A DNA stretch of 64,000 nt from Raillietiella orientalis (Eukaryota). The position numbers and the translations under genes were made by a program. Within the stretch, counting starts at the first letter, position 1. The number at the start of each line of letters is the position of its first letter. This document shows, in pieces, positions 1 to 29,100 of the stretch. Location of the stretch: positions 744,001-808,000 of the forward strand of contig JAYWIR010000034.1 of NCBI GenBank assembly GCA_036172245.1. The letters run 5' to 3'. Under the pieces are notes generated by a model. It was given only the letters and a program-made list of their open reading frames with translations. It made no database searches and had not been told where the DNA came from.

Positions 1-274
1 TGTAAAATGTACTATATTTTACACAATGCGTATGCTAATCGTGAACTGATACAAAATGCAAACTTCATTTAGCTGGCAGTAGAGGTAAAACAAATAAAAT
101 ATCAAATAGCGGATGATGGAACACTTATGATACTTGCAGTTGTGAAGAATCATATGTATGGTCTATCATTATGACGAGCAAATTAGTTCAGATACTAGTT
201 TCTATAGACTTGCTAATCTACTATCTTGCACCAACTGTATGCAGACAAAAACTTTAACTGCTTCAATTTGCTTT

Positions 275-1868
<1,594 letters not shown>

Positions 1869-2149
1869 CTAAATAGCGAGGTTATTTCATAAATTAATGC
1901 ATTAGCTACTAATGCACCGGAACTCTTGCTAATTAAAGCATTATTTCAATTAATCCATTATTAATACGATTCCATGTATGCAACACTTTAAAAATCAATT
2001 CTAAATTGTTGCTTCAAATTATTATTTGTGAGATTTATTTTGTGAAATCTGTGAAAATGAGTATTTTCAGCCTGCAGGTGGTGTGCTTATTTATAACAAT
2101 GGAATTTTCCTTTATAAATATTAACTTAAGAATAATCTCTAGAAAGTTT

Positions 2150-3150
2150 ATTGTTTCACAGATGGATGCCAGAGTTAGGAAAGTAGAAGAGTATGAGGGG
2201 AAAATATAATGGGAAATCTGGCTAAAATTTACTTGAAATGTTTCTTAAGGCATTTTCTTATGAGTGATATAAGGTAATATATGAGGTGATAGCTTTGGAA
2301 CAAGGATGATAGTCAATGCTAATCAGGAGATGAATAGAGGGGCTAGTTTTTGTCATGTTAGTCATGTTGTCATGATGGTTGACAATCATGATGAGTTAAA
2401 GTCATAGTGGAAGGGTAATATTCCTAACTGTTGAATTATGATCAACAAGGTGGACGGATATAGAAGGCAAGGGAGGGAGTTAAAGGAGATACAGGTGAAC
2501 AGGAGGATTAACGATAATACTATTTGAACGAGGAAGTATTTCATTGTATTTGGATTGAAATTAGAAGGGTCTTAGAATAAAGCTATTTTTCATTCATTGA
2601 GTCTCACAAAGTAATTTTCACATGCATTTCTTTCAAGAGAGCTATGAAAAGTGCTTTTCAGATTATGTGCAATTATTTCAAATAAGATCTGTAAAAATCC
2701 ACATATATTAAAGAGCGTTTTCTTATATAAAACTTTAAAATGGAAAGGTTTAAGCTACTTCTCTGGAAGACCATCCTTGGAAAACTTTACTTTCTTTGCT
2801 TAAAGAAAAATTATCATCCGAATCTCTTGAGACAGATACATTTGCATAATTTGTTAAGTCTCTCTCTCTAAATTTATGCATCCTTTCAGTTATCGATCAT
2901 CAGCTTTCTTGCAATGTTCAATTTATTGCACTGTTAGATGTAAATTCCATTATAGATCAATTACAATGGTACTGCACTCCAACACTTTCATATAATTAAC
3001 AGTCAGTACATATACTGACTATAGTTCAGGGATAATTGATAAATTCAAACACGTCCACTTTCATATCATATACGAAGTATGCAGAGCATTACAAATAGGG
3101 GCCATACAAAGTCTAATACATCAGTGAATAATGCACATACGGAAAACTGA
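2150..3150 (-). mobile_element. Possible highly decayed non-LTR retrotransposon (LINE) fragments
   Basis: Broken, frameshifted minus-strand reads faintly resemble LINE ORF2 motifs (PISL..K and the C-terminal KLE.LQRK..GM..L..ERL..L block). No open frame. Confidence 0.25.
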
Positions 3151-3241
3151 AACGGATTGTTTTTGGATTAATTTTGTTCTGTTCTGGAACAAATGACATT
3201 TCAAACAATTCATTACCTGTCATTAATGAATCATAAAAAGT

Positions 3242-3310
3242 CACACACACACACAGATATACATACATACACACATACATATACAGACATATATAGGTAG
3301 GTAGGTAAGT
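3242..3310. repeat. Compound microsatellite (CA)n/(CATA)n/(TAGG)n
   Basis: cacacacacacacagatatacatacatacacacatacatat...aggtaggtaggtaag seen directly. Confidence 0.85.
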
Positions 3311-5010
3311 ATGCAGGTATATTTGATCACCAGTTGTATTCTTTGTGAGAATGCATCATTAGATTTTCGAATTCATTATCCCAGAGTAAAAACGAAACGA
3401 AACTTGAAACGAAAATTCTTTACCAATATCATTATAAAAACTTATTCAGCTTTCTTTTATAAGCTTTGGGTGTCATACGGTCAAAAAAATGATACTCAAA
3501 CAATGTTCTGTTCTGTCTCCCACAGTCTCTGATCATTCCTGCGAAAGTGTGAAAGATGCATAAACAAGCATTTTGCAGTTCATTCTTGTATCTTATTACA
3601 ATCAGGATGTCCCAGTTTTCAAAGGTTTCATCTCATTCGGAAATCTGCCCAAGAAACTTCAAGAGAATTTTCATTGTACTTAAGTGCTAATAATCTTGCA
3701 ACAAGCTACTTTCATTGTCAATTATTTTTAAATTTTCAAATAGTTCAACTATTTAAATCTTGCATACAGAATTTATTGGCGATTTAGTGTCCTCGAGTTC
3801 ATGGCACTTTCGTACGTGCAGATTGGAGGACCGATCTATTATGATCTAATCTGAAAGTTTTTCAACAGTGTCCACGGATCTCTTGAGAATTGTTAAAATA
3901 CTCGAGTAACATGACACTTATTGAGTGATACAGCCAGATTGTTGACATCAATTTTGAAAATTACAGTCGTTTCCTTCTTTGCTGGAGATGAACACACTCG
4001 AGGAAGACCAGACGAATGTGCAAAAAATCTAAGTAGAGCAATCTGATGAAATATTACAAATATATAGACTCCAATATATACGTTTAGTCGCAACCATGAT
4101 CACTGAAAACGTTAATTTTTATGAATGTTACATTAAATTTCTTGGGACATCTCTCACAAATTTGATAATGAAAGCTGATGGATAAAAAATCTATCTTTTA
4201 ACATATCTCACATTTCTGAAGAAAATGTCTCCGAAACATTCGCTGGTCATTGGCCATTCATTTTTGATTCATGACATCTACAGCTGTGGTTTTTTTTTTT
4301 TAGTGAGTGGGGGGGGAATGATTTTTTTAAAGGTGCATGGGTGTATTTTGAAGATATTGATAGTGATTGTTTGTTAGTTTGTATTGAAATTGGTATGTTT
4401 GCAACATATTCTAAGTGAGAACGAGGGCGTAGATGTTATGCTCATCTTCGTGCTCACATACAGATACATGCCTAAGAATGCAATTTGTCTTTGAAGGAGT
4501 AATGCCTACTTGTGGACCCATTTTATGAACGATCTGATTTGAATAAAATGTTACACAAAGTGTGAATACTGAAAAACGTGAGATGAACATACTGCCTTCT
4601 GGAAATCACCGGTAACATGTATGAGAAATGATCGTGTCAAAGGTGCGACACTGTCAACGCGGTAATGTGTAATGTGGCCTAGAAACTTAATCAAGCACAC
4701 TCGAAAGGGAGGAACAACTTTTCAAACGATAATTTGGACATATGAAAACGATAGTACAGCTTAAGATTTTCTGTTTCGTTCCAAGATTGAGCATAGCTGC
4801 CTTTGTAGTGTCACGGTTAAGACGAAGAATTTCGGCCATTTCTTGTGTACCAGTCATATTTGCAAGTGTTTCGCTTTGATGCAGTGGTCTGATTTCTTGA
4901 AAGTACACCCGTCAGTGGAATTTACAGTTGATTTGTACAATTGAACATGAACGTAGGTCTAAGAAATCAGTTTTGAAATTGCATTAGAAAAGCAACAAGA
5001 TTCTCTGAAT

Positions 5011-6490
5011 ATGAAGTGTTTTGATTTTAAAAGTTTGTGCTTATTTTGTGAGTAAAGCAGCTCACTTAGAACATGCTCTGTTTAGATGAAAAATATTACC
5101 CCGGTGCAATTTCCGATTTTTTTAATGGAGTTCAAAAATCCAGAAATGTTTCGAGCAATAATGAGATTTCGAAAAAAACACCGATTAGAGACGCAACACC
5201 CAAAGATATCAAACCGAAAGTTAAGCATGTTTCTCTAGGTGAAGGAAATCGCAAAGTTCGGTATTTAAGAAAGGAACTGACGAACTCCGACTCCACAGAT
5301 GAATTCCGAACTGTCTTTGTAGGCAACATACCACTGACCGTTAACAAACAAAAGATTAGAAAATTATTCAAAAAATATGGTGTTGAAACAATACGATGCA
5401 AATGTAAGCCACAAATGCCAAATTCATCAAAAAAGTTAGCGAAAAACAGGTACTGGTCGATCGTATCTTGTGCTGATTATTACTTGCTGTGGTATTTTAA
5501 TAACCATTAAAATTGTGCATGCTGCAAAAGTACTTGCATTCTTACTGGGTTACTAGAAAATTAAAATCCCGTTTCTAACTTTTTGTCTCTGCACACCAGT
5601 TCTCATCAATCTTGTTTGCATAATCACCAGTTTTTATTCACCGTTTTTAGCACATCAACTGACTGTCAGCAGTGCACTTTTTCAGCATATATCAAATTTG
5701 TGTCACGTGAAGCAGCCTTAGATTCACTTGAAATGAATGGATTTATAGTGAATGACTTTCACTTACAAGTAGATCTTGCTGAAAATAGCAAAATTCATGA
5801 TCATCACAAAGCTGTATTTGTTGGCAACTTGTTACTAGGTGACTCTTGAGTGCTGCAAAATTTCAGTCTTATTTGTATTCTTTAGAGGCAGAAGAAGAAA
5901 AATTACGTGCTCACTTCTCTGAATGTGGATCCGTTCACTCTGTTCGGATTATAAGAGATCCAATCACGAAAAAAGGAAAAGGATTTGGTTATGTGAACTT
6001 TAAGGTAATTAAAAAGGAATAACAGTTGATGTAATTGTATACAGAACTGTGACAGTGTTGAGTTGGCTTTGCAATTAGATGGTACAACGTTTGAAGGCAG
6101 ATCACTGCGCATACAAAGATGCAAAAGCCAACCAAAGCTTAAAGTCAAAAAGAAGTTGGACAAAAATTCCAAGATTGAATCAACATTTCATAAGAATCAA
6201 TCTGCAAATGAAGGTTGCAATAGGAAAGGCAAACTAGTGTGCATGAAACCAAGCACTTATGATAACTGCCATATAAAGAAACCTTCACAAAAAATGCAAA
6301 AAAAGTCTGACTTTTCAGTGTCTGGTTTAAATGCGTACATTGGGTTTCAGTCAACAAAAGGGACATGCCCTAAGGTGAGCAGACATGTTTATTATGACCA
6401 AAGATTTTGTATTAATAATATCTTTAGAAGATGAGAATCACAAAGTTGGCAAAAAAGCAGCGTTGGATTGCTGAGTTGCTGAATAAATGA
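5011..6490 (+). CDS. RBM34: RNA-binding motif protein 34 (Nop12-like, two RRMs)
   Basis: N-terminal YYPGAISDFF; RRM1 RTVFVGNIP...AYIKFVSREAALDSLEMNG...LQVD; RRM2 AVFVGNL..EAEEEKLRAHFSECGSVHSVRIIRDPITKKGKGFGYVNFK..DSVELALQLDGTTFEGRSLRIQRC. In-phase introns 5450-5650, 5839-5885, 6005-6044, probably 6375-6427. Start uncertain (5011 via intron 5048-5085, or 5073); end 6490 if the last intron is spliced, otherwise 6434. Confidence 0.88.
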
Positions 6491-8793
6491 CAGAATACGA
6501 CTCCAATCTTTTCTGTCTTTCTTGTTCTAAGTTCTTTGTTTTCTGCCACAGGGATTCATTGAGTTGCTGTTGGCCATAACTGAGAGCTTGTAGGCGAGCT
6601 AACTCTAATAAGATATGCAACTGTTCAGCTCCGTATTTCTTATTATGCTGCCTCTCCTGCACAAAATCTTCTTGGATTATGAGTTGCAATGGTTCAGAAA
6701 TAGAAAATGTATTCAGGCGTGCTTTTGTCAAATAAACACGAAACAAGTGCAACAAGTTCGGGAACAGCTGAATGTTTTCCTGTGATCCATTCTGCCAAAT
6801 GATGGGAAACTGCACATCACTCTGAAAAACTACATTATAAAAATTTCAACCTTATGCACAAGAAGCTTACTCCTAACATACTGCGTCCTTCAGACAAAAT
6901 TAATACCAGAAGGTTGGTGTCATAGTCCAATCTGTGAAACTGAAAATCATAATGCAACTTTTGCCACTGAATAAGATCTTTGAGAGCTGCTACATTCTGG
7001 ATTCCTGTGTATCATCAGAGCTTGGGCACAAAATCTATTTACTACCTTTTTGGTTAAGTTGACCTGGTTCCATCTGTGTCTCATCCAAAACTAAATGGGT
7101 TCCAGAACTAAGTTGTAGTAATCCTTCTCGTAGTCTGTTGGTGTTGTAATCTTTGCTAAAAACTCTCAGTCCATTTATTACGTCTCAGATGCTCACCAAG
7201 GTATTAAGTGTGCTGTATTCAAAGTGTTCAAATTCAAAGAGAGAAAGGAACTTCTATCCACCAGCTGTTGTATAACCTCGTATAAACTAGCTGCAAATTT
7301 CTTGCTTTTAATACCACAAATGTTGAGTGCAAATTTGCCAAGAATAGTGACATTCTTATGGCTGTGACTAGAAAAAAGCTCGAACATTCCTTTACGAAAT
7401 TGTCTCACATGCTGGAGAGGAGATGACACAATAGGTATTCAGCAGCACAGGAGTCATCACAGAGCAGCCTTTGTAGCAAACAAACCAATTCAAATCGAAC
7501 TTGTTCAATGGAGTTCCCATCTTGTGGAAAAGAGTTTTAGCATACTTGAACCAGAAACTCACCTGGAACTGGAGTAGGTATGGAATCAACATAAGGATTA
7601 CAATGCATAAAAGGACATGTGAAGAGAACATGGACTACAGGAAGTAAATGATCTTGAGCTTCAGATGAATCACATAGATCCTCTAATGGAGGCATACATA
7701 AGATGCCAATGAGATCAATCAAATCATTTAATTTCCAGCTGGGATCATTGTCATAAACCTACAAAACTGACTACTATTTCTGTTTGAAGACTCACTTTTG
7801 CAACACAGCTGTGAACTTCTGGAAATGCTTGCAGTTCCACATCCCTAGAGTCACTGGTATCAGTCAGTCTGTTTTCACAGTCAAGACGGGGATGTTTTGA
7901 GTTACTGAGGCCAAGACTGTTAGAAGTAATTTTTCTCTTGTGTGTTTGCTGCAACATTTCCTGCTTTTCCACTTCATCTATTTACAAAGCTAAGGATAAC
8001 AGTCATTTCATAAAGGATATCTGTTTAGTCCATTCATTTCTTCCAGGCACAGAAATGCACACAAAACTATACCGCTGCTTAGTTACCATAGGATCCATAA
8101 ACTGGGCATCTGTGACCTGAAATACTATTATAAAATAGCTAAGTCTCGAAATTTGAGTACCTCATCATTTAAGATATCCCGAAATCTTCCTGTCTTCTGC
8201 CTTACACCACCTGCATTCTTCTCTGCTACGTTATAAACATCGAGAAAATACTCAGGATCCAGCATGTCCTGAATCATGCCTTGGAATCTCACAAGCTGAT
8301 GTTGTTTTACATGTTCACCTGTGGAACCTAGATTTAAATATGGAACCTAGATTTACCAAATCAAAATACTGAAATAAAAATATTGTTTAAATACTTGTCT
8401 CAGTGATTCCGAAGAAAGCTTCTCCGCGAAAAATTCCGTAACTCCCGTCTCCCAGCCAACTTTGCATGATATGGCATCTGGAACATTCAACATTCAGTAC
8501 TAGTTTACATCATAAAATTGTAGCGCTTGCATCAGCGCACAAAATACAGATTTTGCTAAAATAGAGGATGACTGATATCAACACATTAAAAAAATGAAAA
8601 CTGCCACTATTAAATGAAAACTTGATTCTCATTTCAGGTGATTAGTTTTAACAGTTGGTCTATAAAATTTTAAATTATTTACGAAATTTTTGATACTCTT
8701 GGAGCAGCTTGGAGTGACACTGTCCACACTCTTACCAAAAATATTATCAATGATGGTCAGTGGGCAATTGATCCAACTAATAGCAGCTGGCAT
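6438..8793 (-). CDS. MCMBP: Mini-chromosome maintenance complex-binding protein
   Basis: Spliced translation: [105 protein letters not shown], all matching remembered MCMBP blocks. Exons include 8793-8736, 8477-8395, 8346-8161, 8116-8021, ~7975-7796, 7758-7563, and from 7520 onward. Confidence 0.93.
7976..8020 (-). other. Putative U12-type (minor spliceosome) intron in MCMBP; 3' boundary uncertain
   Basis: Phase-0 donor CAG|ATATCCTTT at 8020; read-through hits TGA five codons later; branch-like TCCTTAGC at 7996-7989. Confidence 0.7.
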
Positions 8794-11700
8794 TTTCCCG
8801 CAAAATAACACAAATTCAAAACAAGGCTGCCATCACTAATTTTCATTTATATAGTTTAATAAACGTGCACAATAAATACAGCAAAGTCGTAATTCGTGAA
8901 TTCAGTTTTTTTTTATTGCACAAAAAGTTCATTTTTAAATAATTTGAATTTTCAGTTTGATCAGGTATACAAACAATTTTCATTTGTAGAACTGAAATAA
9001 GTTTATTTCAAGAATTTCCAGATAAGACGATTTGGGGAACAAACGAGCTTCAGGTAAAAAAAAAAAAAAATTCAGTCTCATTAGAACTCATTTATTGTTC
9101 ATTTGATATGTTCTGAAACAGCGTTCATATTAAAGATTCTTGATATCCTCATCTTATGATTTATCTTAAATGCTACTGACAAGTGTGCAAAATCTGTTGG
9201 GATCCCATTTCGAATGACCTTTATGTGCTTAAAAGTATTGAGAAATGTGTGTCTTTTCATATCATAAAATCCATTCAAAGGAAGAACGAGGATAGCTGAA
9301 GTCTGCGATGGCAATTTACTGGCATTGTATTTTTACGATTTTCCAAAGAATCCTTGGAATCATCATTTACATTCATCAGTTTATTCTAACCACAAATAAG
9401 CAATCAATAAGCGAATATAGTTATCATCAGAAAACACTACAAGATTATGTCAGTGCATATGAGAATTACAAAACATTTAGAATCCTATAATCTGAATATA
9501 AGGGAAGATATAGTCTGAAAATAAGTTCCGTCATTGTTAGGAAATAGTAACAAAAGGATTAGCGACTGAAAAGAGATTATTGCATTGTGAAAGCTGAAAT
9601 TTTCCTCTTTTAGGATGCTCTTACTATTTATTATTACAAGATTGCTACATTATGAATTACCAAATTAAGGATCACTGAATTTATAAGATATATAGAGTGA
9701 CATCAATAAAAAAATAAATCAGAATAACTGGTTAGAGGAAATCCCAAACAGAACAAAGAATTCTTTTACGTCTACAAAGTGCACGATAAATTAAAATAGC
9801 ATACGAATCCTTCTTCATGGATTTTCAGCATAATTTTTTGATGTACTTCACATTTCTCTTTACGGAATTTCGGGTATTAAAGTTCTTTTTGCTGTTAGAA
9901 CACTTTTCACTATTCTTAATCTGTCTAGGATTTTTGGCAGAGAGCTGCAGAATGTGAGGATTTCCAAAAATTATCTCATGACACATATAAAGAAAGTTGG
10001 GCGTGATATAGCCTCTTTCATAACGAGATTTATCGTTCTTGTTTTTTTCTTCACGAATACTCTCCCCCCAAACGATGAGGGTAAACGAATTCGATAGTCT
10101 CTGGCTCCAAGAAGACTGTGAATTCATGATTCCTGCTTTATAGAAGGGGAGTCTCTATAATCAATTGTATAGAGCCATAAGTTTATTAGGTTCATTACTG
10201 CTTGGATGAGTAGTAATGAGAGATTATCTGCAAGTCAATCTACAGTTTGAAAGCAGCTCGTTTGTAAGTAAATAAAGGATATCTTCATTTAGACTTACTT
10301 TCTGTCTCTAGGAGGAAATTTCCCTCCACCTACATTAACAATTTTGAAGTAAAACAGCAGAACAATAGCGAAACCGTTCAGCTGTGGAACACAAGTCAAC
10401 TGGAGTGTACTTTCTGCAGTGCTATGCCACAGAGACAATCATTGCACTGAAATTGTAGAAAGACTTGAATCCTTAATTCCTGAAGATTTCTTGATAGTGA
10501 ACTCCTCATCGAAAGTGCATTATTTGTCCTCTGCTTATTCCAGACAAAACTTATATTGAGGAAATCAACTTTTAATCCTCTAATCAAATATCACAACCGA
10601 TGATTGTTTACGTTTCCATCTTTTTACCAAAGTACATTCTCGAAGTATTCTTATTCAAAATGAATGGAAAATCTCAATGAATCAAAAAAGGAAATCATCA
10701 ATAAACGATTTTAAAGTAACACTGTATCATACGAACTGATGAATATGAACGCGATTTGATTTCTAGATGCTTCTACTGATGGAGCTACCACAAATAAGCT
10801 GGAAAGAAGGATCAGAATAAATAATAATGAATGACGACAGTATCTTCAAAGGCCGACCACAATAATGATATAGAAATTATAAATGACGGAAAAATGAAAT
10901 GATGTATTGATGACAAAATAATGCATCGATATACTAAATTAATTTTCAATTCCCGAATTCTAGCGTTTTCGACATTCATTATCATACTTGCTCCAAATGC
11001 GCTTCCTTACTGACATGACACTAAAAGTCAGAAAGCTGTTTATTGGCTCATTACTTCGTTTGTCTTCGTGATCCTGTGAGCAGGGGTTGCACTATTTGAG
11101 CGGCTCGTTGATCTTCGATCTACCTAGCGAAAGTTGTATCATGACGCATTTCCTTCTCTCATGCAATCCAATGGATAGAGAGATCCTCTTGGACAGATGT
11201 GCTATGAGTAAAAGACATTCACTCAAATCTCTTCGAGATTGTCAGTATTTGCTTGTTAACTTTCGAGTGAAAGAAGGGTATGCATATGTAGAAAAGGCAT
11301 GTCTCTGAATATTATAAGATCGCTTTTTCCGACGTATTCACTTAAATTTGACGAATAGTTTCTTCCTCATTCGTCGGCTTTGCAGATTTGCTCCATTGCA
11401 AGTGAGTCTCTTGTCATAATGTTGTGAACACAGTCTGTATAATTGTTAAAGCTGATTTTCACTGTCCACTACCTAGTACAGTTGCAACTTTGTCAAACTC
11501 AATGGATCTTAAAATTATACTGTAGATAACAGGCGATCACACTTGGAGATGCAACCATCTGAAATATTTCTATCACATCGAATTCCAACTTTTATTTTCG
11601 CTAGCGTATTTTTATTTTGAATTCTAAAATATTTAGAGTCCAAAATAAAAATAAATCTCTAAAATAGAGTCTCTAAAATATTTAGAGACTTGACAATCAT

Positions 11701-11899
11701 CACATATAATTTTAGATCACTAATGAAGGTTGGAGAATACTAAATAGCTATGCATCGCAATATTGCCGAAAATCTTGAAATCGGAGCTACTAAACTGAAA
11801 CGTCATCGTCTTTATATCAACAATTTTTTTCTCGTAATTCTATGAATTCCACATTCCAGAATTTATTTGAAGGATTCGGAGTAGTTATTCTCTCTCCTA

Positions 11900-12650
11900 C
11901 CTACAACATAAGCCTCTCTGATGTAGGTAATATCACCAAACAAGCTTCGTTATTGAGAGGAAGTTATTTGCAAACTGAGAAAATAATAGCAAGTTTTGAA
12001 GGTGCCATAAGCAAATTAGCAGCAAGAGCTGATTCTATATGTATCTAACGTTTAGGAATATCCTATAAAATATATCAGGATATTCAATCAGCATCTTCAA
12101 CCGTTAGTACTTGAATGCCAAAGGTCCACTTCGATACTACAGATCTTTAGCAAAAGGAAAAACGGATTTCGATCCTTTACTTCGATAAGCATTAATTCAT
12201 TAAAAGAAATATGGAGATTGTAAACTGAACTACAAAACTTGCAGCCGTAATATGACGCTTGGTGAAGGAAGTTCTGAAGGCTCACGCTCAGGTAATCATA
12301 AATTTCCAAGTGTAAGTCCGTCATAACGATTACGTGGCACTGTTCGAGGTCAGTACTCAAGCACCTTATATAACTCACCTTATTTTCTATTAACAGAAAT
12401 GAATTTGGTTTTACAGGTCTCTATAAAGGGAATAATTTGAATATGACGAAGATTTCAGATATGAAAATCATCCCGAGTTCATTTGTTTTCAAGTTCTGAA
12501 CTTAATTCAGTGGTTAAGAATCTTCTGCATCAGATGATAAAAGCTGAAGCTTTTATTGCTTGATACAATGGTGCAGAAATATTTGGTGATTTCTATATCG
12601 ACTTTTCACTTCCTTTTTATTGGATGAAAAGTAAATGCCATTTGACTAAA
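11900..12650 (+). mobile_element. Degenerate LINE (CR1/L2/Jockey-like) reverse transcriptase relic
   Basis: Decayed RT motifs appear in the expected order: SLL...EKII (~11945-11990), gatctttagcaaa (DFSK-like, ~12142), K.YG and L.KEVL..HAQVIIN (~12205-12305), gaggtcagtactc (QGSVL-like, ~12345), QWC...KCH (~12565-12640). Many stops and frameshifts. Confidence 0.45.
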
Positions 12651-12920
12651 CAGAATGTTTGATTTTGCAGCAATTTTATCTTAAATGTTTCAAAAGACTC
12701 TCTTGAATACGAATGTATGTCGTAATCAATAAATTGGATATGTGATAAAAGGATTTGAGACTTTGCATAATGAATGCAAGGGTTGCATGTAGTTTCTATT
12801 TGAACACATTTTGAATGTGTGAATAATGAAGCTAACAACAACAGTTGCAAATGGCCATCCTGCTTATATTCACAGGAAAGGTCACGTTGCGGTAAAATTC
12901 AGTCTCAAGAAAATGAAAAA

Positions 12921-13703
12921 ATGTACAGGAAATATATGAAATTACTGGATAATTGGCCCATTGATCCTACAAAAAATAACAGGTAATTAGATTTTGTTCA
13001 TATGGAAGAATGTATAGGTGTGAGATACATTGATAAAGGATGAAAATAAGATCACATTTCTGTTTGACTCAGTTTCTGTATGAATTCAGTTGTGAGTGAT
13101 TTCTTAATTCATGTTGTGCAGTTAACAAATTTTTCATTATGGTTGTTTCAGAACGGTAGAGTAACATGAAATTTTCAAGATTAACGTTAAATAATTTTCT
13201 TGAAATATGTCAGCATCAGTAGTAGTCTCTTTTGTCAGTAGCAGCTGTAGTAGTGTATCAGTAGCATTCTCATAGTAATTTTTATACTTCGTGATTTTTC
13301 AAAATTAATACTTCAGTTTCCTTGATATGATTCCTTACTGTTCCCAAAATGACTAATGTTTGTTGTACTAAGAAATTTTTTACAAAATTGGAATTTCAGG
13401 GATTTAAGTGCCTATTTGAGAAAATTTGTTGTTGCAAAATTCCGTGATAACAAAGAGAACAAAATAGATTTGGCTGGATGTGAACAGAATTATCAAAGTT
13501 TGCTTCGTATTTCCACAGACTATTACTTGAAAAAATATCCATGCTTACATGTTTCTGGAGCATTGGGTTTATCCTATGATGATTGCAGATACATTAATTC
13601 TACTAGCACCTTAGAAGCCTTGAACAAAAAGAGAAAGCTTTTTAGTTGGCTTACAGAGAAACGGAAACATGAACCAGTGAAAGACTCACCCATAGAGGCA
13701 TAA
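12921..13703 (+). CDS. UQCC2: Ubiquinol-cytochrome c reductase complex assembly factor 2 (Cbp6 ortholog), 2 exons, 121 aa
   Basis: Exon 1 12921-12982 (MYRKYMKLLDNWPIDPTKNNR), GT-AG intron 12983-13399, exon 2 13400-13703 (DLSAYLRKFVVAKFR..CEQNYQSLLRISTDYYLKKYP..GLSYDDCRYINSTSTLEAL). Parallels human UQCC2 ([52 protein letters not shown]). The ORF track shows only exon 2 with a false start. Confidence 0.9.
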
Positions 13704-13708
13704 CTAGG

Positions 13709-14737
13709 ATGTGTGGTCTGTATTTTAAAAATTGTCTTCAAAGACTTCATGTACCTGTTATGGCAAGAGAAGTTGTGGAAGGTTTGCAAATAGAGCCTAA
13801 AGGGACATACATAGATATGACATTTGGTGCTGGAGGACATACCAAAGCCTTGCTTGAAACTGACAGCACTATAAGAATAGTTACCATGGATAGAGACCCA
13901 GTATCCCATAAGCTGGCCAAAAGTCTTCAAGAAGAAGTGAAGCATCAAGTGATCCCATTAAAGGGGAAATTTAGTAACCTTCCTGCATTGTTGGATGAAA
14001 TTGGCATTTTTCCTGGTTCGGTGAATGGTTTTATTTTTGATTTGGGGTGCTCTTCAATGCAGCTGGATCAAGCAGAAAGAGGATTTTCTCATACTAAGCC
14101 AGGCCCTTTGGATATGCGTATGGACAATAGTGAAGACTCATTAACAGCTGCCGATATTGTTGCATATTGTGAGGAAGATTACTTGGCAAAAATCTTAAAA
14201 GCGTATGGAGAGGAAAGAGCTTCAAAGAAAATAGCACGTGCTATAGTAGAGAGTCGGCACATGTTGGGAAAGCTGAAACTAACAACAGAACTATCAGCAT
14301 TGGTTGCCGAAGTTTTAGGTTACAAGTATGGTTTAGATATGCTGGCGAGACCTGCTCATGTAGCAACTCGCACTTTTCAAGCATTACGAATGTTTGTTAA
14401 CAATGAAATTAATGAGCTTTCCTGTGGAATGGAGTTGGCATACTATTACCTGAAAGCCGGAGGTCGTATTGCAACCTTGTCTTTTCATTCCTTGGAAGAT
14501 CGTCTTATTAAACAACACCTCACAGGACCACAGGGTTGTATTTCCTCATCATCTCCACACGTTGCATCTCAGTGGAGAAGTCCCACTACATTTCATGATG
14601 AGGAGAGTATGAAGATGGTGATGAAAAGGCGCTGGAAACAGCTTCACAAACATGTGCAATTGCCCAATGATGATGAGGTGGCCCAGAATCCACGTTCCCG
14701 TTCAGCAAAGTTAAGAATAGCCGAAAAGTGTGATTAG
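13709..14737 (+). CDS. METTL15: Mitochondrial 12S rRNA m4C methyltransferase (RsmH/MraW family), intronless
   Basis: HVPVM, YIDMTFGAGGHT, DRDP, FDLGCSSMQLD..ERGFS..GPLDMRMD, YGEER, ATRTFQALRMFVNNE, SFHSLEDR, NPRSRSAKLR: the full RsmH/METTL15 motif set. Confidence 0.96.
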   Translation: MCGLYFKNCLQRLHVPVMAREVVEGLQIEPKGTYIDMTFGAGGHTKALLETDSTIRIVTMDRDPVSHKLAKSLQEEVKHQVIPLKGKFSNLPALLDEIGIFPGSVNGFIFDLGCSSMQLDQAERGFSHTKPGPLDMRMDNSEDSLTAADIVAYCEEDYLAKILKAYGEERASKKIARAIVESRHMLGKLKLTTELSALVAEVLGYKYGLDMLARPAHVATRTFQALRMFVNNEINELSCGMELAYYYLKAGGRIATLSFHSLEDRLIKQHLTGPQGCISSSSPHVASQWRSPTTFHDEESMKMVMKRRWKQLHKHVQLPNDDEVAQNPRSRSAKLRIAEKCD

Positions 14738-15332
14738 ATTCCCAAGGAGGTAATGTATGCTTGCTTGATTATGATCAGCAATAGATCCTATTTGTTACAC
14801 ACCAAAAACTTCTATCAATACGAATGTTTCTGTTGCATAATCTTGTTTTTGAGTCTCCATTACGGTAATTCAGTCATAATTCTTTCTTCGTTGCGGTATT
14901 GGACAAACATGGAGAACCTTAGTGGTTAATATGTGTTCTCCATTCATGCAATCAGCTACACCACAAACGGTCGGATCATTTTTATAGTTTCCCATCACCA
15001 CTGTTCCATGCGGTGGCCGATTTATTGTTAGCAGAAGCACATACATTATGTGGTCTTGCTGAAACAACGAACGTTCGTACTCAGTGACTCCTTAATTTCT
15101 GAATACATCAGATTATATGGTTGCAGTTTCGTCTTGGTCGGCGTGGAAAAGAACTTCCACTCTCTACATTGAGATTGAGATATTCTCCTATACATCCTCC
15201 CTTCTCCACATTAACATTACTGTTACAGGTTTAGATGCTCCTCGCAGTAATTGGAGATTTCATGAGAATTACACATCAGTGTAAGTCAACGAGAAGCATC
15301 ATTGATAACACTTGAATTGCAATCCAGATTGT

Positions 15333-15338
15333 AATAAA
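15333..15338 (+). terminator. Candidate poly(A) signal for the UQCC2/METTL15 transcript
   Basis: First AATAAA I could find downstream of the METTL15 stop; weak evidence in AT-rich DNA. Confidence 0.3.
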
Positions 15339-18300
15339 AGTTTATGGAAAGATTAAAGTTTTTTCTCTAAACACTGCAGTTTTTCAAAAGATTGCGTTTG
15401 CGAGCAGATCCGTGTATTTCTGAATACTACGGCAGTAGAATCATGCAAAAATGGGTGCATTCATCCAGTGGGTTCATCCGTCGTCATCAAGGTTCCATCG
15501 TGATGCTGCCTCTTCGATTCTACGCTAAAGAGAGGACTCGTGGGATCCACATTGGGAGCGATGCGATGGCATGCACCTGAATCCTGCATTTGATGCTACA
15601 TCCTGCATGTAGGATCGTTAGTCTCCTTTTGATATAGACAAACTCTGCATCTTCACAAGAATATTTGCTTCTGTAACGCAAGAAGCTTTCTTCAAGTTGT
15701 CCGAAGAAAGCAAAAATAATAAAAAAATAAAAAAACGGTATTGTGTTTTGTGTTTCTCTTTAGTCGCCGTCTTCTCGGATGCCATCGAATGGCATCCGAG
15801 GAAGTCTAATCCAAAAGATTCGCCGTAAGGTCTAATCCAAAGGATTTGAGGAAACTGGGAAGAGAGAGAGAGAGACAAAAAAAGCAATCCTTTAATTTCT
15901 AATTTCCACAGCAAAGTGTAGCATAATTGTCTTCGGTGTGTAGAAATGATGTGATTTTCCTATTCTGGCACCTGTGGATTGCAAAGGCATGAAAGCAAAT
16001 CTTTGTATAAGTGCTTTTGCAACCGATGGCGTAGGAAAAGTGTTTGCTTTCAGGCGTCTAGAATTTCTCTTCCGTCTAGAAGTCGTTCTATCGTAAACGA
16101 TTCCTTGTTCTATATTATTGTTATGGAGCGTTAATAGAGGGTTATTTTGAAATTTGTGCTCCCCACAGGCGGGGTGCTGACGTATCTATCCGTTCGTTCG
16201 TTCTTGCAGCATCGTACTTACGAATGTGGAAAAAAACTTGGAAGATGTCTGCAAGGATTTGAACTTTGGGGCTCCCCTTTTTGTAGATTTCGGTCTGCTT
16301 CTCCTCCCTCATTATTTTCCCTGTGTTGGCAGATGTTTTCTTCATCCCTGCTTCGTGATCTATTCTTCCGCCTCATTTGCTTTGATTTCTTATTTTGTTT
16401 AGCGCCTGTTTGGAGAGGTACTTTCTGCGCGCAAACGATGGATCATTTTAATTTTATGAAATGGACTGAGGCATCTTTTGGTGGTTTCATGCATGCAGTA
16501 AATCAAAAAGTTTCTCTGTTCTGGGCGGGATCGAAGAGGCCCGCTAGCTTGGTTGAGAAAGAAATGTAGATTTGATGTCATCCTCAGTCCAATTTTTCTT
16601 CCCCGTTTCCCATGTTTATGAAATAGCCTTCGATCAATTAAAGCGAAAGAATTCTTTTTGGTGCGGATCGTTTCTTTGCGGTACTTGCCCGAGCGTTCAA
16701 GAGTTGGTCCAGATTCACAATTGGCCATTTGTTTCCCGAGTAGTGATTTTTGCGCATGGTCGTAAGAAATCATCACCATTATGCTGAGTGACCGGGTCTT
16801 TATTCTTTTGTACAATGTGATTTACAGATCACGACTTACTCCCGTGTGCCGGTTGTAGTTTCTTTCTTTCTTAAACCACTCGGCTGCACTCTCGGTCAAA
16901 CCGTTGGAAAATCTCTCCGTGGTTTCTTGAAGTTTTCCGTGGATTTCTCTTCCGGTCGCGTGATTTTCTCAAGTTGTGGCTAAACACGTTTTCCTATGGC
17001 GTGGTCCGCTTCATCCCGTTTTGAACACCCGTTTCCCCCTCCACCTTGGTTCAGGACGGTGATGTCGGCAAACGGAACGAATCCGCTTTTCCGTCATTGC
17101 CATTGCTTCCGAACACTGGACGTGTTGAGCTTTCCTTTCGTGTCGACGCAAGCGTTTCTCGGTGTCCGCGGTTCCCTTGCGCATCACCGTAAATTTCGTT
17201 GCTGAGGTCTCCGTGCACAGGATTCCCGGTCAGCACGCTTGCCTCGGAGAACGGATTCGCCTGTCGAGGGGACCAGCCTCCCGTGCCGTCGGTTTTGGCA
17301 TCGGGACCTCCGCGAGTTTAAAGTCTCTCCACGTCGGCGGAGTCCCAGAGGTAGGAGGCAGGATAAGCCGCATCTCCATCGTCGTGGAGCTTGATCAATT
17401 CCCATTCGTTGGGAGTGCGTCCGGCCGTTGGCCTGATGCGATGCTCGGATGCTCCGCGATCCGCTCTGCTTTTCTGATGACTCGGAAGCACTCGGAGTAC
17501 ACGAGTCTTGCAGCAAGAAGATGTTGGGCTCAGAGGTCTGCTGCTGGTCATGTGGGTCGGATCTTTCTTCTCGCTTCGTCTGACGGTGCCCCACTCCGAC
17601 GATTCGCGTGCGTGCTATCTTCGCCCTTATTCGGGTCGTCGTCGCGGCTGCTTTCCGAGTGTTGCTGATTTTCGGTATCGAGGAACGGACGGAGGCGTGC
17701 GAACCAGAAATGGGACGAAAGGCAGGGCGACCTGTCGGACCTCGCTCGGTGGCGACCGAAGCTCTTCGCATCTTGGCCGGCAAACAAAGGAAGGTCTGGG
17801 AAGGAAGGTGCACGGCTTTCACGCACGCACCCGCAGGCTTCCTAGACCCAGCTTCGCAATTGCAAAAGTCGACTGGCGTAAGCCGCATTTGACCGTTCTC
17901 TTCCGAACGAGACGCGCGAGGAGCGGGAGCGGACACTCCCGGATGTGTCTCTTCGTCCACCTTCCTGTACGTGTGAAGGCGAAGACGAAGACTGGTGGCA
18001 TCGTCTGGGGTCCGAATTGCACGCGTCCCCGTCGTTGGTGCCCACTACAGTGGCGACTCGAACAGAAGGAACGGAATAGTTCCTCCCGACCTTCCTGTGG
18101 AGCTCCGGATTCGGGGCGACGCCAGGAAATCGCCGACGAGCTTTTGCTCCTCCGTCTCGCTACCGTCTCCCCTGCCTCCAGCTAATCCTGTTGGAGGCAA
18201 GCCTGGAGGCCTTTGTGTGGCCAAGGCACGCTTCCCTCGCACGCGCTCCCGTCTGCGGAGTCGTCAGCGACCACTGAGACACCTGCTGGATTCGTCAGCC

Positions 18301-23330: not shown

Positions 23331-25916
23331 TCACTCCAGCTGCTCCAAGAACGATGGCGCCTTGAAGTACTCGGGGACGGCCTCGTCCAGGCGGGCGATG
23401 ACCTTGTAGATGGACTTCTTCCAGGAGGGCTCCTGATCTTTCCCCGAGGCGATGGCGCTGTAAAACTCCTTGACCGTCTGCTCCATGACAGGGCAGAAGT
23501 GAGGGGGCACCTGCGAGGGAGTGCGTCCGTGAGCCCGCGGATCCGTGAGATCCCCTCCCTACCTCGATGTGGTTGTTGCGGTTGTAGTGCAGGTTGAGGA
23601 CTTTGAAGAGCTCCGAGTCCGCGGTGACGCGCAGGGCCGCCTCCGGCTGCTGCGCGCCCTCCACCACCGCCTGCCGGGCGAACTTCTCGATTTGGATGTA
23701 GTAGAACTCCCTGCGTGGGACGGGGGTGTAAGGGGGTGGGAGAGGAGGGAGAAGTGGACTACTCACCGGAAGTTGGAGAACCATTTGACCAGCTGGGCCG
23801 TGTTGTTCTTGTTGAAGCGGACGTCCGGGAAGTAGGTCTTAAGCACGGAGGAGCTGGGGTAGCGCGTCCAGAAGAACATCAACTTGGCTTTGCGCAGGTG
23901 CATGGGGGTCAGCGTCATGGACGCCTGGGGGCCCCCGTCGTAGGCCGATACCTCTACTCCAGGAGGTGGGTCCGCGTCCGGTTCGCTCTTGAGCCCGGCG
24001 AAGAAGCCGTCGGGGGACTTGCCAGGGGGGCGATGCATCCCGTGGAAGGCCGCGGCGGCGGCGCCGATCCCGTCATCACCCTGGTGAGAGCGGCCCGGGC
24101 GGAAGGCCGGGTAGCGGACAAACAGCTCCGACTGGTGCAGGCTGGGGTTCGGGATGGCGACGCTGGTGGGGAGGGGTCCCGGAAGCAGTCCCGGGGGAGG
24201 GTAGCGGGGCCGGGAGCATTCCTGGTAAGCGGAAGGAGGGGCGACAGGAGAAGCGGCGGCAGGAGAGGGTCCGTGGCAGCTGCGCGAGGGCGCCGCCGCC
24301 GCGGAGGGTCGGCCCGCGACCAGGCAGCTGTGGTAGTCTGCCACCGGGACTGCGTCGCCGCCCCCGTCCGAGAGCCTCCCGCCGCCCAGCCTCTGGACCA
24401 TCCGCGCGTCCGTGACCTTCGCTCGCTTCCTCCGCGGGCTCATCACCAGGCTGAGGGCCTCCCGTTGCTCCGCGTCTGATTCAATTTCTAGACTGGAAGC
24501 GTCCTGGCTGTTGGCGGAGTCGAAGGCGGCATCCCAGCAGTACTTGGCGCTTGACACCGGTGGGGAGTTCGCCGGGACGACGATGCGCCCCCCCTCCGGA
24601 GGAGACGTCCTGCGGATCCGGAAGCCGTTGACTGGGAACCTCTGCAGGGATTGCCTCTCCTCTCCCCGGGCGGCGCCGGGATGGCCGTCCCTGCCGCGGG
24701 CCAGGTAGCGCCCGACGACGGCGTCCACGAGCGACGACAGGGACGCGGCAATCTCCCTCTTCAACGCATCGGCCAGGTCGTCGGCGACCGCGCCCAGGTC
24801 CCTTCGGAAGGCGTCCTCCTCTCGGCGCTTGACATCCGCAGGGGGCATCGGCAGAGACGGCGCTCGCTGCTGCTGCGCCATGATGCGCTGGGCCAGGTTC
24901 AAGAACTGCCGTTCGGTGAGGGCCCCGTGACCATTGCGGGGCACCGAGAAGGGCGGCGTCAGAACGACGCCCCTGTCCTGAGACAGCGGCGTTTTCCGTC
25001 GGGAGAGGTGCTGCTGCTGCTGCTGCTGCTGCCGCCGCCGGTTCAGCCGCCGCCTCTGCCGCCGCTCCTCTTCCTCTTCGCGTTCTTCTTCTTCATCCAC
25101 GTCTTCCTCGTCCTCGTCGCCTTCCTCTTCCCCCGCTTCCTCCCTCTCTTCGTCTTCAACGGGGTCTTCCTCCTCCTCGTCCGCTTGGTCTTCCTCTTCC
25201 TCCAGTTCCTCCTCCTCGTCGTCCATGGCGTCCTCATCCTGGCGCCAGGACTGCCTGGGTAGAAGTCGCCGCTTCCGGCGCCTCTGCTGCTGCTGCTGCT
25301 GTCTCGCGGAGCACATCTCGTCGTACCTCCTCCGCATTTCAAACAACTTTTCTTCCATCATCTTCAGCTGGGATTTGAATTCTCCCTCGTCTAGACGGTG
25401 GACCGGGGGCCGGCGGGCGCCCATGTCGTGCTGGACCGGGAGGTAATGCTTCCTCTTCTTGCAGCCTCCCACGCCCGCTGCCGCCGAGCACATGCTGCTG
25501 ACGATTCCCTCCACGCGCAGCTTCTTGCAGACTTCTTCTTCCGCGCGCGGGGGTTTCTGCAGTTGCTGTTGCTGCTGTGTAGGAGGGAAAGGAGGAGGAG
25601 GAGGAGGAGGAGGGGTGGAAGAGGAAGGAGGGGGCGGAGGGGAAGGAGGAGGTCGCTCTTCGCCTGCGGCGCCTTCTTCCTTGGTTTCTTGCGCCGCCGC
25701 TGCTGCCTCGGCCGCGGACCCTACCTGCGCCCTCTCTTCCACAGCCGTCGCTTCCTCTTTCTTCGCGGGCGCAGGGGATGGGCCACATTGCTCCTCCTCT
25801 TCCTCCTTCTGGACGACCACTGGAGGGAACTTTTTCTTCTCCAGCATCTCCCGGAGGAAGTCGCCGCCGCCTCCCTTCTCGAGTGCGGGCGGTGGCACCT
25901 CACATGCCGTCGCCAT
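23331..25916 (-). CDS. pros: Prospero/Prox homeobox transcription factor, copy A (~825 aa)
   Basis: Exons 25916-23767, 23710-23563, 23510-23331 (GT-AG introns of 56 and 52 nt). Homeo-Prospero domain [100 protein letters not shown]-terminal motifs [39 protein letters not shown]. Start Met inferred; an upstream exon is possible. Confidence 0.96.
25007..25660 (-). repeat. Coding trinucleotide/low-complexity tracts in prospero A (poly-Q, poly-E/D, poly-P)
   Basis: (CTG)n and (GGA)n/(TCC)n runs on + translate to [19 protein letters not shown]... and PPPPPPP. Confidence 0.85.
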
Positions 25917-26145
25917 GGGGGAACGGAGAATGGGGACCGACGGGAAAACCGGGTGGTGCTGGTGGCGGCGGCAGAGGTTGCTGCTCCTGTTGCTCCTCGC
26001 GGGAACCAGGTGGCGCGTGCGCTCGCGGGAGCTCTCCGGACGGCAGACGCGAACCCACCACCACGCGCGCGCAGACTGCCTCCGCGCCCGCTCCTCTCCG
26101 CGATTCATAGCTCGCGGACGGACGCGCCCGGCAACGCCCCGACGG

Positions 26146-26179
26146 GTGACGTCACGCGTCGTCCCGGCCGTCTTATTGG
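26146..26179 (-). promoter_or_regulatory. Putative proximal promoter of prospero A: CCAAT box plus palindromic CRE
   Basis: CCAATAA (26179-26173) followed by CGTGACGTCAC (26156-26146), ~230 nt upstream of the inferred ATG; same arrangement upstream of copy B. Confidence 0.55.
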
Positions 26180-29100
26180 CCGCGAGGGGGTGGGGACGGT
26201 GCCGCCGAGGAGAGGAGGACAAAAGAACGGGGCGCGTGAGCTCGTGCGATCGCGCGCGCGCGCGTCGTCCTCCGTCTCCCGGAGCCTCCCGTGAGCCGCC
26301 GCCTTCCCTCACGAGCAATTTTCCCGCTTCCCGAGGCATGTCCGGGAAAAGCATCTGCCTCTCCCGCGGATGCTGGAGCGCGCTTCCTGGGATCGCGTGA
26401 CGGGGCGACGGCGGCGCGTCTCCGCGGATGCTGGGGCGACGGCGGCGGATGTGCCCTTCTTCCCACCCACCCCTTCCTCGCTCGCTCTCCCCCTCGCGAG
26501 GGGGAGGACCGGAAGTCCGCGCAGGAGGCGGCGACGGCGCTCCCCGTCCCCGCTGCCGCCTCCGCAGCGAGCGGCAAAGGCGAGGGGCTCCGGGGGGTGA
26601 CCCCTCGTCGGCTTCCGGCACGCTCCCTTCCACCGCCTTCGGAACACGGGGCCCCGGAGGCGGCGACGCTCTGGCCGTCGCTCCTTTTTTTCCGGTGGCA
26701 CCGTCTCCCGCTACCGTTCCCGGATGCTGAGGTGCGGTCCCGGCGCCTTTGGAGGCTTCCCTGCCTCCTCCCTCTTTCCTTCTGAGGCAACCCCGGACTC
26801 CGTGCGCGCGCGATCCCTCAACCGCATTCCTGAAGGATGGGGAGGAAGAGGGGAAGGGGGAGCACGTCCTCCTCCAGGATTGGAGTCTCCTCACGCGAGG
26901 GCGTGGGATGAGGGGGGGGGGAGGCACCAACTCATCTCCTCTCCCCTCCCGAGGTTACAGGAATTTCCCCCTCGACGCCCCGGGAATGCGAGGAGAGGAG
27001 CGCGCGCACGTCCCCGGGCGGTGCCTTGAGACGTCCTCCAGAGGAGGGGCGGTGTGTCTCCCTGGGCGGCTGAACAATGGGCAGCGAGGGCAACCCTTTG
27101 GACCCCGACCTCTTTGTTTTCGCGCGCCGCTGTCAGGACGCACCTGGCCAGACGTCTTGAGGAGGGCGGCGACGGCCTCCGCGGGTGACCTTGCGGAATG
27201 ACGCCCGAGGACGAGAGGGGAGGAGGAGGAAGAGGAGAAGGAGGGAGGGGTGGGTTCGGCTGGGGGAAGAAGGAAGAGGAGGAAGCGAAAAAGAGGCGGT
27301 GGAAGGGAAGGGGGGGGAGGGATTGGCTGGGGGAAGAAGGAAGAGGAGGAGGAAGGGAAGAGGAGGCAGGAGGCGCTCGTGTGTCCGAGGACTCTTGGGA
27401 AATGGGGCGGCGGGGTGTGGAGAGAGCCTGAAAGAATGAAGTGAGGAGGGAGGGGGTGACTCGTCATGGTGGGGGTGGGGGGAAGGGTCCCGCTGGTTCC
27501 GCTCTTTCACAACTCGCCGCAGCCTGCAGACCTCCGGCGCGGAACGTCTTCCTCAAACACCGCCGCCAGCTGTGGCCTCGGGGCGCGTGCGCGGCGATCG
27601 ATGAGGCACCGAACGGTCGGACGCACTTCGATCAAGCGGCGGACGGACGCGCGCGCGCTTCGAGGGTGAGGGGCGGGCGGGAAAGAGGAGGAGGAGGAGG
27701 GAGGAGGCTTCCTGCCACCTGCCTCTCGGATCTCCCGCTCTAGCATCCGGGAAACTAGAGGAAGGCTGCAAGGATGTTCCTGCGGTCCTCTCATCCTGGG
27801 GGAAGCCTGTCGGCCAGCCGTGAGGCGACTCCCTTCGTCAGTGAGCTGCCCTCTCAGGGGCACCGAACAGCGTGCAGCCTTTCTCGCTTTTCGGAAGAGG
27901 GTGAAAAAGGGGGGAGGGGAGAGTAGAGGGATCTCTGCGGCTTCATTTTTACTTCCTGAGAAGTCGCAAGGACAAGGCGACAGAAGGGGAATCCCGTGGA
28001 TTTTCATCCGCTCCTCCCCGTTTCGTCGCTACGGCGTAGGATTGGGAGTGGCCGGATCTCCAGTGCCCGCCGTGGAGAGACAGTCGCTCCCAGGATGTAA
28101 GGTTCTCTCCCTTCCCGGAGACGTCTGGGAACTTCCCTCAAGACGCGACCTTTTCGAGATCAGAGACAAGATCAGACCCGGGAGCTCCCCATCGGAAGGA
28201 GGGGTGTTCTGCCGACTCTCCCCTTCCTCCCTCCCTCCCGTTTGCTCCTCGACCCGGCCACACACGCAAGAACTCAAGGAGGGAATCGGAACTTCCGGAA
28301 GACATCGTCGGAAGGGTCAGGGAAGCCGCGGAAGTCGGGCCGGCTCCTCTGCCCCCCGTCTCTTTCCCTGCGGCTCCCAGCTTGCGCGCTCCTGGTGCTC
28401 CCGAGTCAGGGGGGGAAGGAAGGGGTTCCGGGGAGCTGGCGAAGCGCGCAGGGGCATGCACTTTTCTTCCCTCCACTCCTTTTTTGGGAGCGGAGGGGGA
28501 GGGGGATGCGCTCTTCCTGGGCTTGATCGATAGAAGGGGGCCGCGAGTGCGCGCGGGAGTTCTCAGCCGCAGGGCCTTCCTTGAGCAGCGCCGTGTGAGT
28601 CACGCGTCGGCACGCACCCGCACCTCCCCGCTGCCGTTAATCTCTCGGGGAGTATGCATACGCGGCGAGTCCGGGGGGGAAGGGGGGGCGCTTCCCCAGC
28701 TTCTTCCTGCGTCGCATGTCTCGCACGCTGCCACGTTTCCGCCTGGCAGGGGAAGGTCGGCCGGCCCCACGGCCGAGGCACCTCTGTCCCCCCCTTCCCT
28801 CTTTTCTTTCTTCCTGTCTTTCCCGATGCCTCTCTTGCGCCTCTCTCTCGCGCGGCAGTTTCCACGGTGACGGCTGCTGCGAAAGCGTCGGGAACGAAGC
28901 GCACGCGAGCGCCACCTTCTGCGGCCTCCGCGCCCGTGGGAAAGGCCTTCCACGCGGAGTATCCCTCTCCAAGGTCCGCGCTCTGGGAAGCGTGCGGCGA
29001 TGACGACAGGATCCGCGGAACGTTCCCGAAGCAGTTGTTGCGTCCCGCTCCTTTTGTCTCCCGGCGGAGGGATCGGCGGCTCCAGAGGAGAACATCTGAC

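Follow-up and report, generated by a model that had tools for sequence, protein, structure and literature searches.

We identified a locus at which the genes for UQCC2 (Cbp6) and METTL15 (RsmH) abut on one strand, with 5 nt between the stop codon of the first and the start codon of the second. It lies in the window, i.e. the whole stretch of 64,000 nucleotides analyzed here (Table 1), and the same gene order is found in two hemipteran-like metagenome contigs, in which the stop and start codons overlap. We propose a dicistronic locus, conserved within Pancrustacea, in which METTL15 would be translated by reinitiation after termination on UQCC2, and we put the probability of this reading at roughly 0.5.

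Table 1. Features annotated in the window (positions count from its first letter)
Feature	Position	Strand	Remarks
RRM-protein gene	5070-6431	+	Converges with the MCM-binding-protein gene
MCM-binding-protein gene (MCMBP)	6441-8346	-	PF09739
UQCC2 exon 1	12921..12982	+	ATG, 20 further codons and 2 bases; ends in phase 2
UQCC2 intron	12983..13399	+	417 nt, GT...AG; donor cag/gtaatt, acceptor tttcag/g
UQCC2 exon 2	13400..13703	+	TAA stop at 13701-13703 included; PF20180 match
Position aligning with the ATGA overlap of L001/L002	13661..13672	+	ACG GAA ACA TGA in the METTL15 frame (DNA and protein alignment, frame check)
Spacer ctagg	13704..13708	+	5 nt; its AG (13706-13707) might act as a weak splice acceptor
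METTL15/RsmH homolog	13709..14737	+	Single uninterrupted exon, 342 aa; TAG at 14735-14737
prospero/PROX-like gene	23766-26954	-	1063-aa open frame ending in a Homeo-prospero domain (PF05044, 90.8 bits); GC-rich half
U4 spliceosomal snRNA gene	52151-52265	-	RF00015, 57.9 bits; only Rfam match in the window at the gathering threshold

The preliminary description of this DNA had read the upstream gene as a two-exon UQCC2/Cbp6 homolog, and both the profile match and a colinear alignment bear this out. Exon 2 alone matches PF20180 (UQCC2_CBP6) in Pfam with 30.2 bits, above the curated cut-off of 27.9, over profile positions 21-70. The start of the domain, which is absent from this match, is provided by the 21 residues of exon 1, which encodes the YRxxxKLLxxWPxD motif conserved at the start of the family. 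When aligned to the homolog P0207, exon 1 shows 71% identity (12/17 residues; residues 2-18 to 5-21, E 2e-8) and exon 2 shows 37% identity over 82 aa (residues 1-81 to 26-107, E 3e-12). The spliced frame is continuous, both exons are colinear with homologs, and the resulting ORF of 122 codons starts at an AUG with A at -3.

Just 5' of the UQCC2 ATG, a TATA-like TTATATT (12864-12870), an Inr-like TCAGTC (12899-12904) and a well-matching 3' splice-site-like ttattcacag/g with its AG at 12874-12875 were noted by eye on the plus strand. The UQCC2 start site may lie at 12864-12904, or the gene may instead possess a non-coding exon farther upstream. An out-of-frame ATG at 12913 (plus strand), 8 nt upstream of the UQCC2 start, opens an 8-codon ORF to 12939, and the TGA of this ORF (12937-12939) forms an ATGA overlap with the ATG at 12936, which is the second Met codon in the UQCC2 frame. 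The short ORF is relevant only if transcription starts upstream of 12913.

The downstream gene matches PF01795 (MraW/RsmH) in Pfam over essentially its full length (282 bits, profile positions 3-308 of 309, above the curated cut-off). Its product shares 50-53% identity with arthropod proteins that are named as homologs of METTL15, and in an alignment of 16 arthropod sequences it keeps the invariant residues of the family, including the DMTFGAGGH stretch. Its earlier assignment to METTL15 is thereby supported.

The junction between the two genes reads ...GAG GCA TAA ctagg ATG TGT... on the plus strand, with the METTL15 ATG at 13709-13711 and an A at its -3 position (13706). The ORFs are in different frames (13701 vs 13709, a difference of 8). 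On re-reading, this anatomy, i.e. a 5-nt gap on the same strand between different frames with A at -3, proved to have been given correctly in every detail in the preliminary description, which had also stated that the gap can accommodate neither a promoter nor a poly(A) site; with five bases between the ORFs this holds. The pair has the layout of a dicistronic locus: two complete ORFs on one strand and no space for either element between them.

Metagenome contigs were scanned with the METTL15 protein of the window, which yielded 15 loci, including 4 animal-like ones with 40-50% identity. These four (L001-L004) were read in detail, and L005-L015 (33-38% identity) were checked with a UQCC2 profile only. 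The contig L002 (1587 nt) carries a complete UQCC2 of 112 aa at 137-475 (PF20180, 65 bits, profile positions 1-89), and the TGA of this gene (473-475) overlaps the ATG (472-474) of a 356-aa METTL15 homolog as ATGA. L001 (1614 nt) begins within UQCC2, and its 48 residues are 60% identical to the C-terminus of the L002 protein; its AGAAAATGAGG junction is as in L002 and stands ahead of a METTL15 homolog of 363 aa. Thus, both contigs show an ATGA overlap of the UQCC2 stop and the METTL15 start, in the same gene order as in the window. L003 carries a zuotin/DNAJC2-like gene upstream of its METTL15 homolog in place of UQCC2, and L004, which contains the 3' exon only, is uninformative on the pairing. 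In L003, a long-branched animal contig, the two genes (122-2931) are on the same strand and about 240 nt apart. Across the 20 fetched loci, the UQCC2 profile detected no copy beyond those in L001 and L002, and L005-L015 gave no match; the matches of L001 and L002 to this profile are circular, as it was built from them. A prokaryote-genome collection was also scanned for arthropod contigs present as contaminants; the 5 loci obtained are, to judge by their titles, all bacterial RsmH, and none has a UQCC2-like ORF.

A METTL15 tree built from 46 sequences places L001 and L002 among auchenorrhynchan Hemiptera, and the UQCC2 of L002 shares 77% identity with its counterpart in the leafhopper Macrosteles quadrilineatus. 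The METTL15 of the window lies inside the arthropod clade (support 96), apart from the insects and beside two barnacles (support 95); its exact placement is unsure because of long branches throughout. The comparison with relatives proposed in the preliminary description has thus recovered the abutment in L001 and L002, though not in L003. Since order, strand and near-zero spacing are repeated in far-apart lineages, the pairing is more than chance. As judged from sequence comparison, it is conserved across distant lineages of Pancrustacea, two relatives showing it, and it is not universal, L003 and Drosophila having other neighbors. A lineage-specific retrocopy of METTL15 was ruled out, as the hemipteran-like contigs have the same neighbor. 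Fused UQCC2-METTL15 proteins were also sought: none of 80 proteins of 600-2000 aa (E <= 0.001, out of 4403 candidates) lists a UQCC2 domain, and the domain is likewise absent from all 120 near-length METTL15 matches listed.

Given that the ORFs lie 5 bases apart in the window and overlap as ATGA in two distant insects, UQCC2 and METTL15 are probably carried on one transcript. No AATAAA was found on the plus strand from 12734 to 15332. ATTAAA is present at 13957 and 14507, within METTL15, and could end a UQCC2-only mRNA. Together with an AATAAA at 15333, these two are the candidate poly(A) signals of the locus. L002 consists of a 136-nt leader, an uninterrupted UQCC2 without the intron seen in the window, METTL15 and a tail of 45 nt that closes with an A-run; in its dimensions it looks like a full mRNA, putatively of cDNA origin. 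The protein database places the L002 UQCC2 on a contig of 1596 nt, and five further UQCC2 homologs are on contigs of 925-2525 nt, mostly far above the needs of a UQCC2-only mRNA. No equal sizes were found when UQCC2-bearing contigs (1596, 1747, 925, 1705, 2525 and 1945 nt) were compared with METTL15-bearing Logan contigs. L001 extends about 80 nt beyond an AATAAA, and its 3' part is GC-rich and could belong to a neighboring gene; this contig is possibly genomic. It had been suggested beforehand that one transcript gives both proteins. The idea of a common transcript gains strength indirectly from the ATGA abutment in L001 and L002 and from the mRNA-like form of L002. We infer a common mature mRNA for both ORFs and termination-reinitiation as the mode of translation.

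In the proposed mechanism, a single promoter upstream of 12921 would give rise to a transcript with UQCC2 first and METTL15 second. Ordinary scanning would account for the translation of UQCC2. Some of the ribosomes terminating at its stop codon would remain on the mRNA and start anew at the AUG of METTL15, located 5 nt downstream in the window and within the AUGA overlap in the hemipteran copies. A low output of an rRNA methyltransferase would thereby be tied to the output of a cytochrome b assembly factor. An AUGA overlap or a gap of a few nucleotides between stop and start is the classic layout of termination-coupled reinitiation. Reinitiation past an ORF of 122 codons is normally inefficient, which counts against this mechanism here.

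Leaky scanning was considered as the main mechanism and rejected: eight AUGs precede the METTL15 start, which makes it unlikely that scanning ribosomes reach it, and an A occupies the -3 position of the UQCC2 AUG. From the UQCC2 start to 13709, these 8 AUGs compare with 7.5 +/- 2.6 expected from composition, i.e. there is no depletion, and L002 shows a mild depletion only (3 AUGs vs 6.4 +/- 2.3 expected).

Viral termination-reinitiation, as at calicivirus VP1/VP2 and influenza B M1/BM2, needs an upstream TURBS with UGGGA, a motif complementary to 18S rRNA that is found no more than about 100 nt upstream of the restart codon. The spacing is similar, stop and restart overlapping or lying a few bases apart in the viruses, as in L001/L002 (AUGA) and in the window (5 nt). 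Unlike the viral cases, none of the three sequences (window, L001, L002) has a TGGGA within 150 nt upstream, no TURBS motif of the viral type being found in any of them. Folding of the three junctions compared with shuffled sequences (z of -0.02, -0.16 and +0.41) indicated neither an unusual RNA fold nor an IRES-like structure.

The segment of the window that aligns with the ATGA overlap of the hemipteran-like contigs (Table 1) contains neither the METTL15 start nor the UQCC2 stop. AAA TGA in these contigs aligns with AAA CGG in the window, which has ACG at 13661-13663 and then TGA at 13670. The segment appears to be homologous to the hemipteran ATGA site. As the altered T is common to ATG and TGA, both signals would have been lost at once. 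After this change, whose direction we infer, the UQCC2 ORF would have become 13 codons longer and the start of METTL15 would have moved to the in-frame ATG that follows. Between the new stop and the new start there are, once more, just 5 nt, which fits selection for coupling. A more far-reaching version of the proposal is that UQCC2-METTL15 is an ancient mitochondrial translation cassette of Pancrustacea, in which a selected stop-start coupling fixes the ratio of the cytochrome b factor to the rRNA methyltransferase, and that the lineage of the window re-recruited a stop and a start after the change of the shared T. We regard this version as possible but doubtful. If it is true, the locus would be a cellular example in which reinitiation is efficient behind a long ORF with no helper element of the viral type.

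Three other accounts of how METTL15 is expressed were weighed against reinitiation. The genes could be separate overlapping units, with a METTL15 start site inside exon 2 or the intron of UQCC2 that yields a monocistronic mRNA, while the long RNA either serves UQCC2 only, METTL15 being its 3' UTR, or ends within METTL15. For loci with coexisting dicistronic and monocistronic transcripts FlyBase has standard comments (extracts of PMC4528330 supplementary Table S1), and from its comment classes internal start sites are common at fly loci. A short UQCC2 mRNA could end by way of the ATTAAA at 13957, and the eight upstream AUGs would make translation of METTL15 from the long mRNA inefficient. Compactness is also seen elsewhere in the region, which is tightly packed at 5070-8346, given that about 3 nt separate the end of the RRM-protein ORF from that of the terminal MCMBP ORF on the other strand. 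Against this account, a start site upstream of 13669 keeps upstream AUGs, and an intronic one opens a 115-codon ORF; because of the upstream AUGs, a clean METTL15 leader must begin in the last ~40 nt of the UQCC2 coding exon. It also leaves unexplained why the stop-start distance stays at 0-5 nt in three lineages, and we consider it rather unlikely.

The preliminary description had also offered alternative splicing and spliced-leader trans-splicing as routes to METTL15. In the former, promoter and exon 1 would be shared and the donor at 12982/12983 joined to an AG just upstream of 13709, so that exon 2 is skipped and METTL15 is extended at its N-terminus by the first 21 residues of UQCC2. Exon 1 can indeed be joined to 13708 in frame, and the same holds for four of the five AGs in the last 40 nt (13676, 13682, 13694, 13706). 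Such an extension would suit the short N-terminus of METTL15 in the window, whose 13 residues before the conserved HVPVM are the second shortest stretch among 104 relatives (median 59), and Drosophila CG14683 has a 5' UTR in common with another gene (excerpt of PMC4528330). Presequences of 14-18 aa also occur in METTL15 of other arthropods, though, and a purine-rich stretch precedes 13706, where TAG is a weak acceptor. A UQCC2-like N-terminus with WP[IVL]D was found in 0 of the 200 METTL15 relatives collected, and a join to the corresponding AG of L002 (467-468) is out of frame and would run into the TGA. Thus, the in-frame join stands, the acceptor is weak and relatives lend no support, which makes the alternative splice improbable. 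Trans-splicing would resolve an operon by cutting the pre-mRNA at ctag/G (13707/13708) and adding a capped leader to METTL15. It fits an AG 2 nt upstream of the METTL15 ATG and the grouping of this METTL15 with barnacles, and it is known in copepods and amphipods according to excerpts of PMC7986045; the excerpts that treat these two groups report no operons in them. The acceptor has no pyrimidine tract, and Rfam detected no leader RNA gene in the window, only the U4 snRNA, which is weak evidence since such genes need be neither nearby nor curated. Only in a species from a group such as copepods or amphipods would trans-splicing be an option. It is given as absent from insects in the same excerpts (PMC7986045), yet the hemipteran-like L001 and L002 are arranged alike; as an account of the insect copies it therefore fails, and we hold it to be very improbable overall.

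Reinitiation at a shared mRNA, the reading that we prefer, can be set beside known systems. According to excerpts of PMC9681215, sloth1 and sloth2 of Drosophila are translated from one transcript and, like the pair in the window, are nuclear-encoded mitochondrial proteins linked to complex III, with their genes on one strand and a 5-bp gap. They differ in being small paralogs of 79 and 61 aa, UQCC2 and METTL15 being unrelated in sequence, and in that sloth2 is reached by leaky scanning past a poor Kozak context, as opposed to an upstream ORF of 122 codons with A at -3 and eight AUGs in the window (PMC9681215, same excerpts). The sloth1-sloth2 locus is the closest precedent for UQCC2-METTL15. 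Drosophila CG14683 is, as we presume, the METTL15 homolog of the fly. In an excerpt of PMC4528330 (supplementary file 6, rows 148-149), CG14683 and pug have a common promoter and 5' UTR. Taking this homology as correct, CG14683 resembles METTL15 of the window in having no promoter of its own and relying on that of another gene; it differs in that its partner is pug and not UQCC2, and in that a 5' UTR is shared with a nested gene in place of abutting ORFs (PMC4528330, same excerpt). If CG14683 is the METTL15 homolog, the gene would depend on the promoter of another gene in two different ways across arthropods. The spliced-leader operons of nematodes and tunicates likewise contain tandem genes with almost no intercistronic space, but they require trans-splicing, absent from insects, in which UQCC2-METTL15 copies are arranged alike (excerpts of PMC7986045). 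The locus belongs to the known class of dicistronic or overlapping loci of arthropods, with a functionally suggestive pair of partners. The pairing itself had been put forward as undescribed, in agreement with our full-text literature searches, which returned general reviews only and no description of UQCC2-METTL15 (supplements in bioRxiv lay outside the search).

The window as a whole shows a sharp break in composition. GC content is 0.33-0.40 at 1-16000 and 0.60-0.68 at 18000-64000, with a transition of about 1 kb at 16500-17500, and the observed/expected ratio of CpG is 0.57 on the AT-rich side vs 0.88-0.89 on the GC-rich side. An assembly chimera at this break was not supported: Ns are absent, the composition shifts gradually, and animal genes are present on the GC-rich side. 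The break looks like a methylated housekeeping domain beside an unmethylated developmental domain rather than a chimera.

As described in excerpts of the review PMC7657662, UQCC2 is located together with UQCC1 at the mitoribosome exit, and the synthesis of cytochrome b depends on it, the binding of UQCC2/Cbp6 to UQCC1/Cbp3 and nascent cytochrome b being known from yeast and human work, and METTL15 methylates 12S rRNA and is necessary for small-subunit biogenesis. By analogy, both products of the locus would act on mitochondrial translation. At such arthropod loci, one of the two genes may be overlooked, or reads may be assigned wrongly, in gene prediction and expression analysis. If the pair forms one expression unit, it would offer a tractable cellular model for the translation of a second long ORF in animals, and if the genes are fused into such a unit across distant arthropods, this would represent a natural example of co-regulation between the maturation of ribosomes and respiratory-complex assembly.
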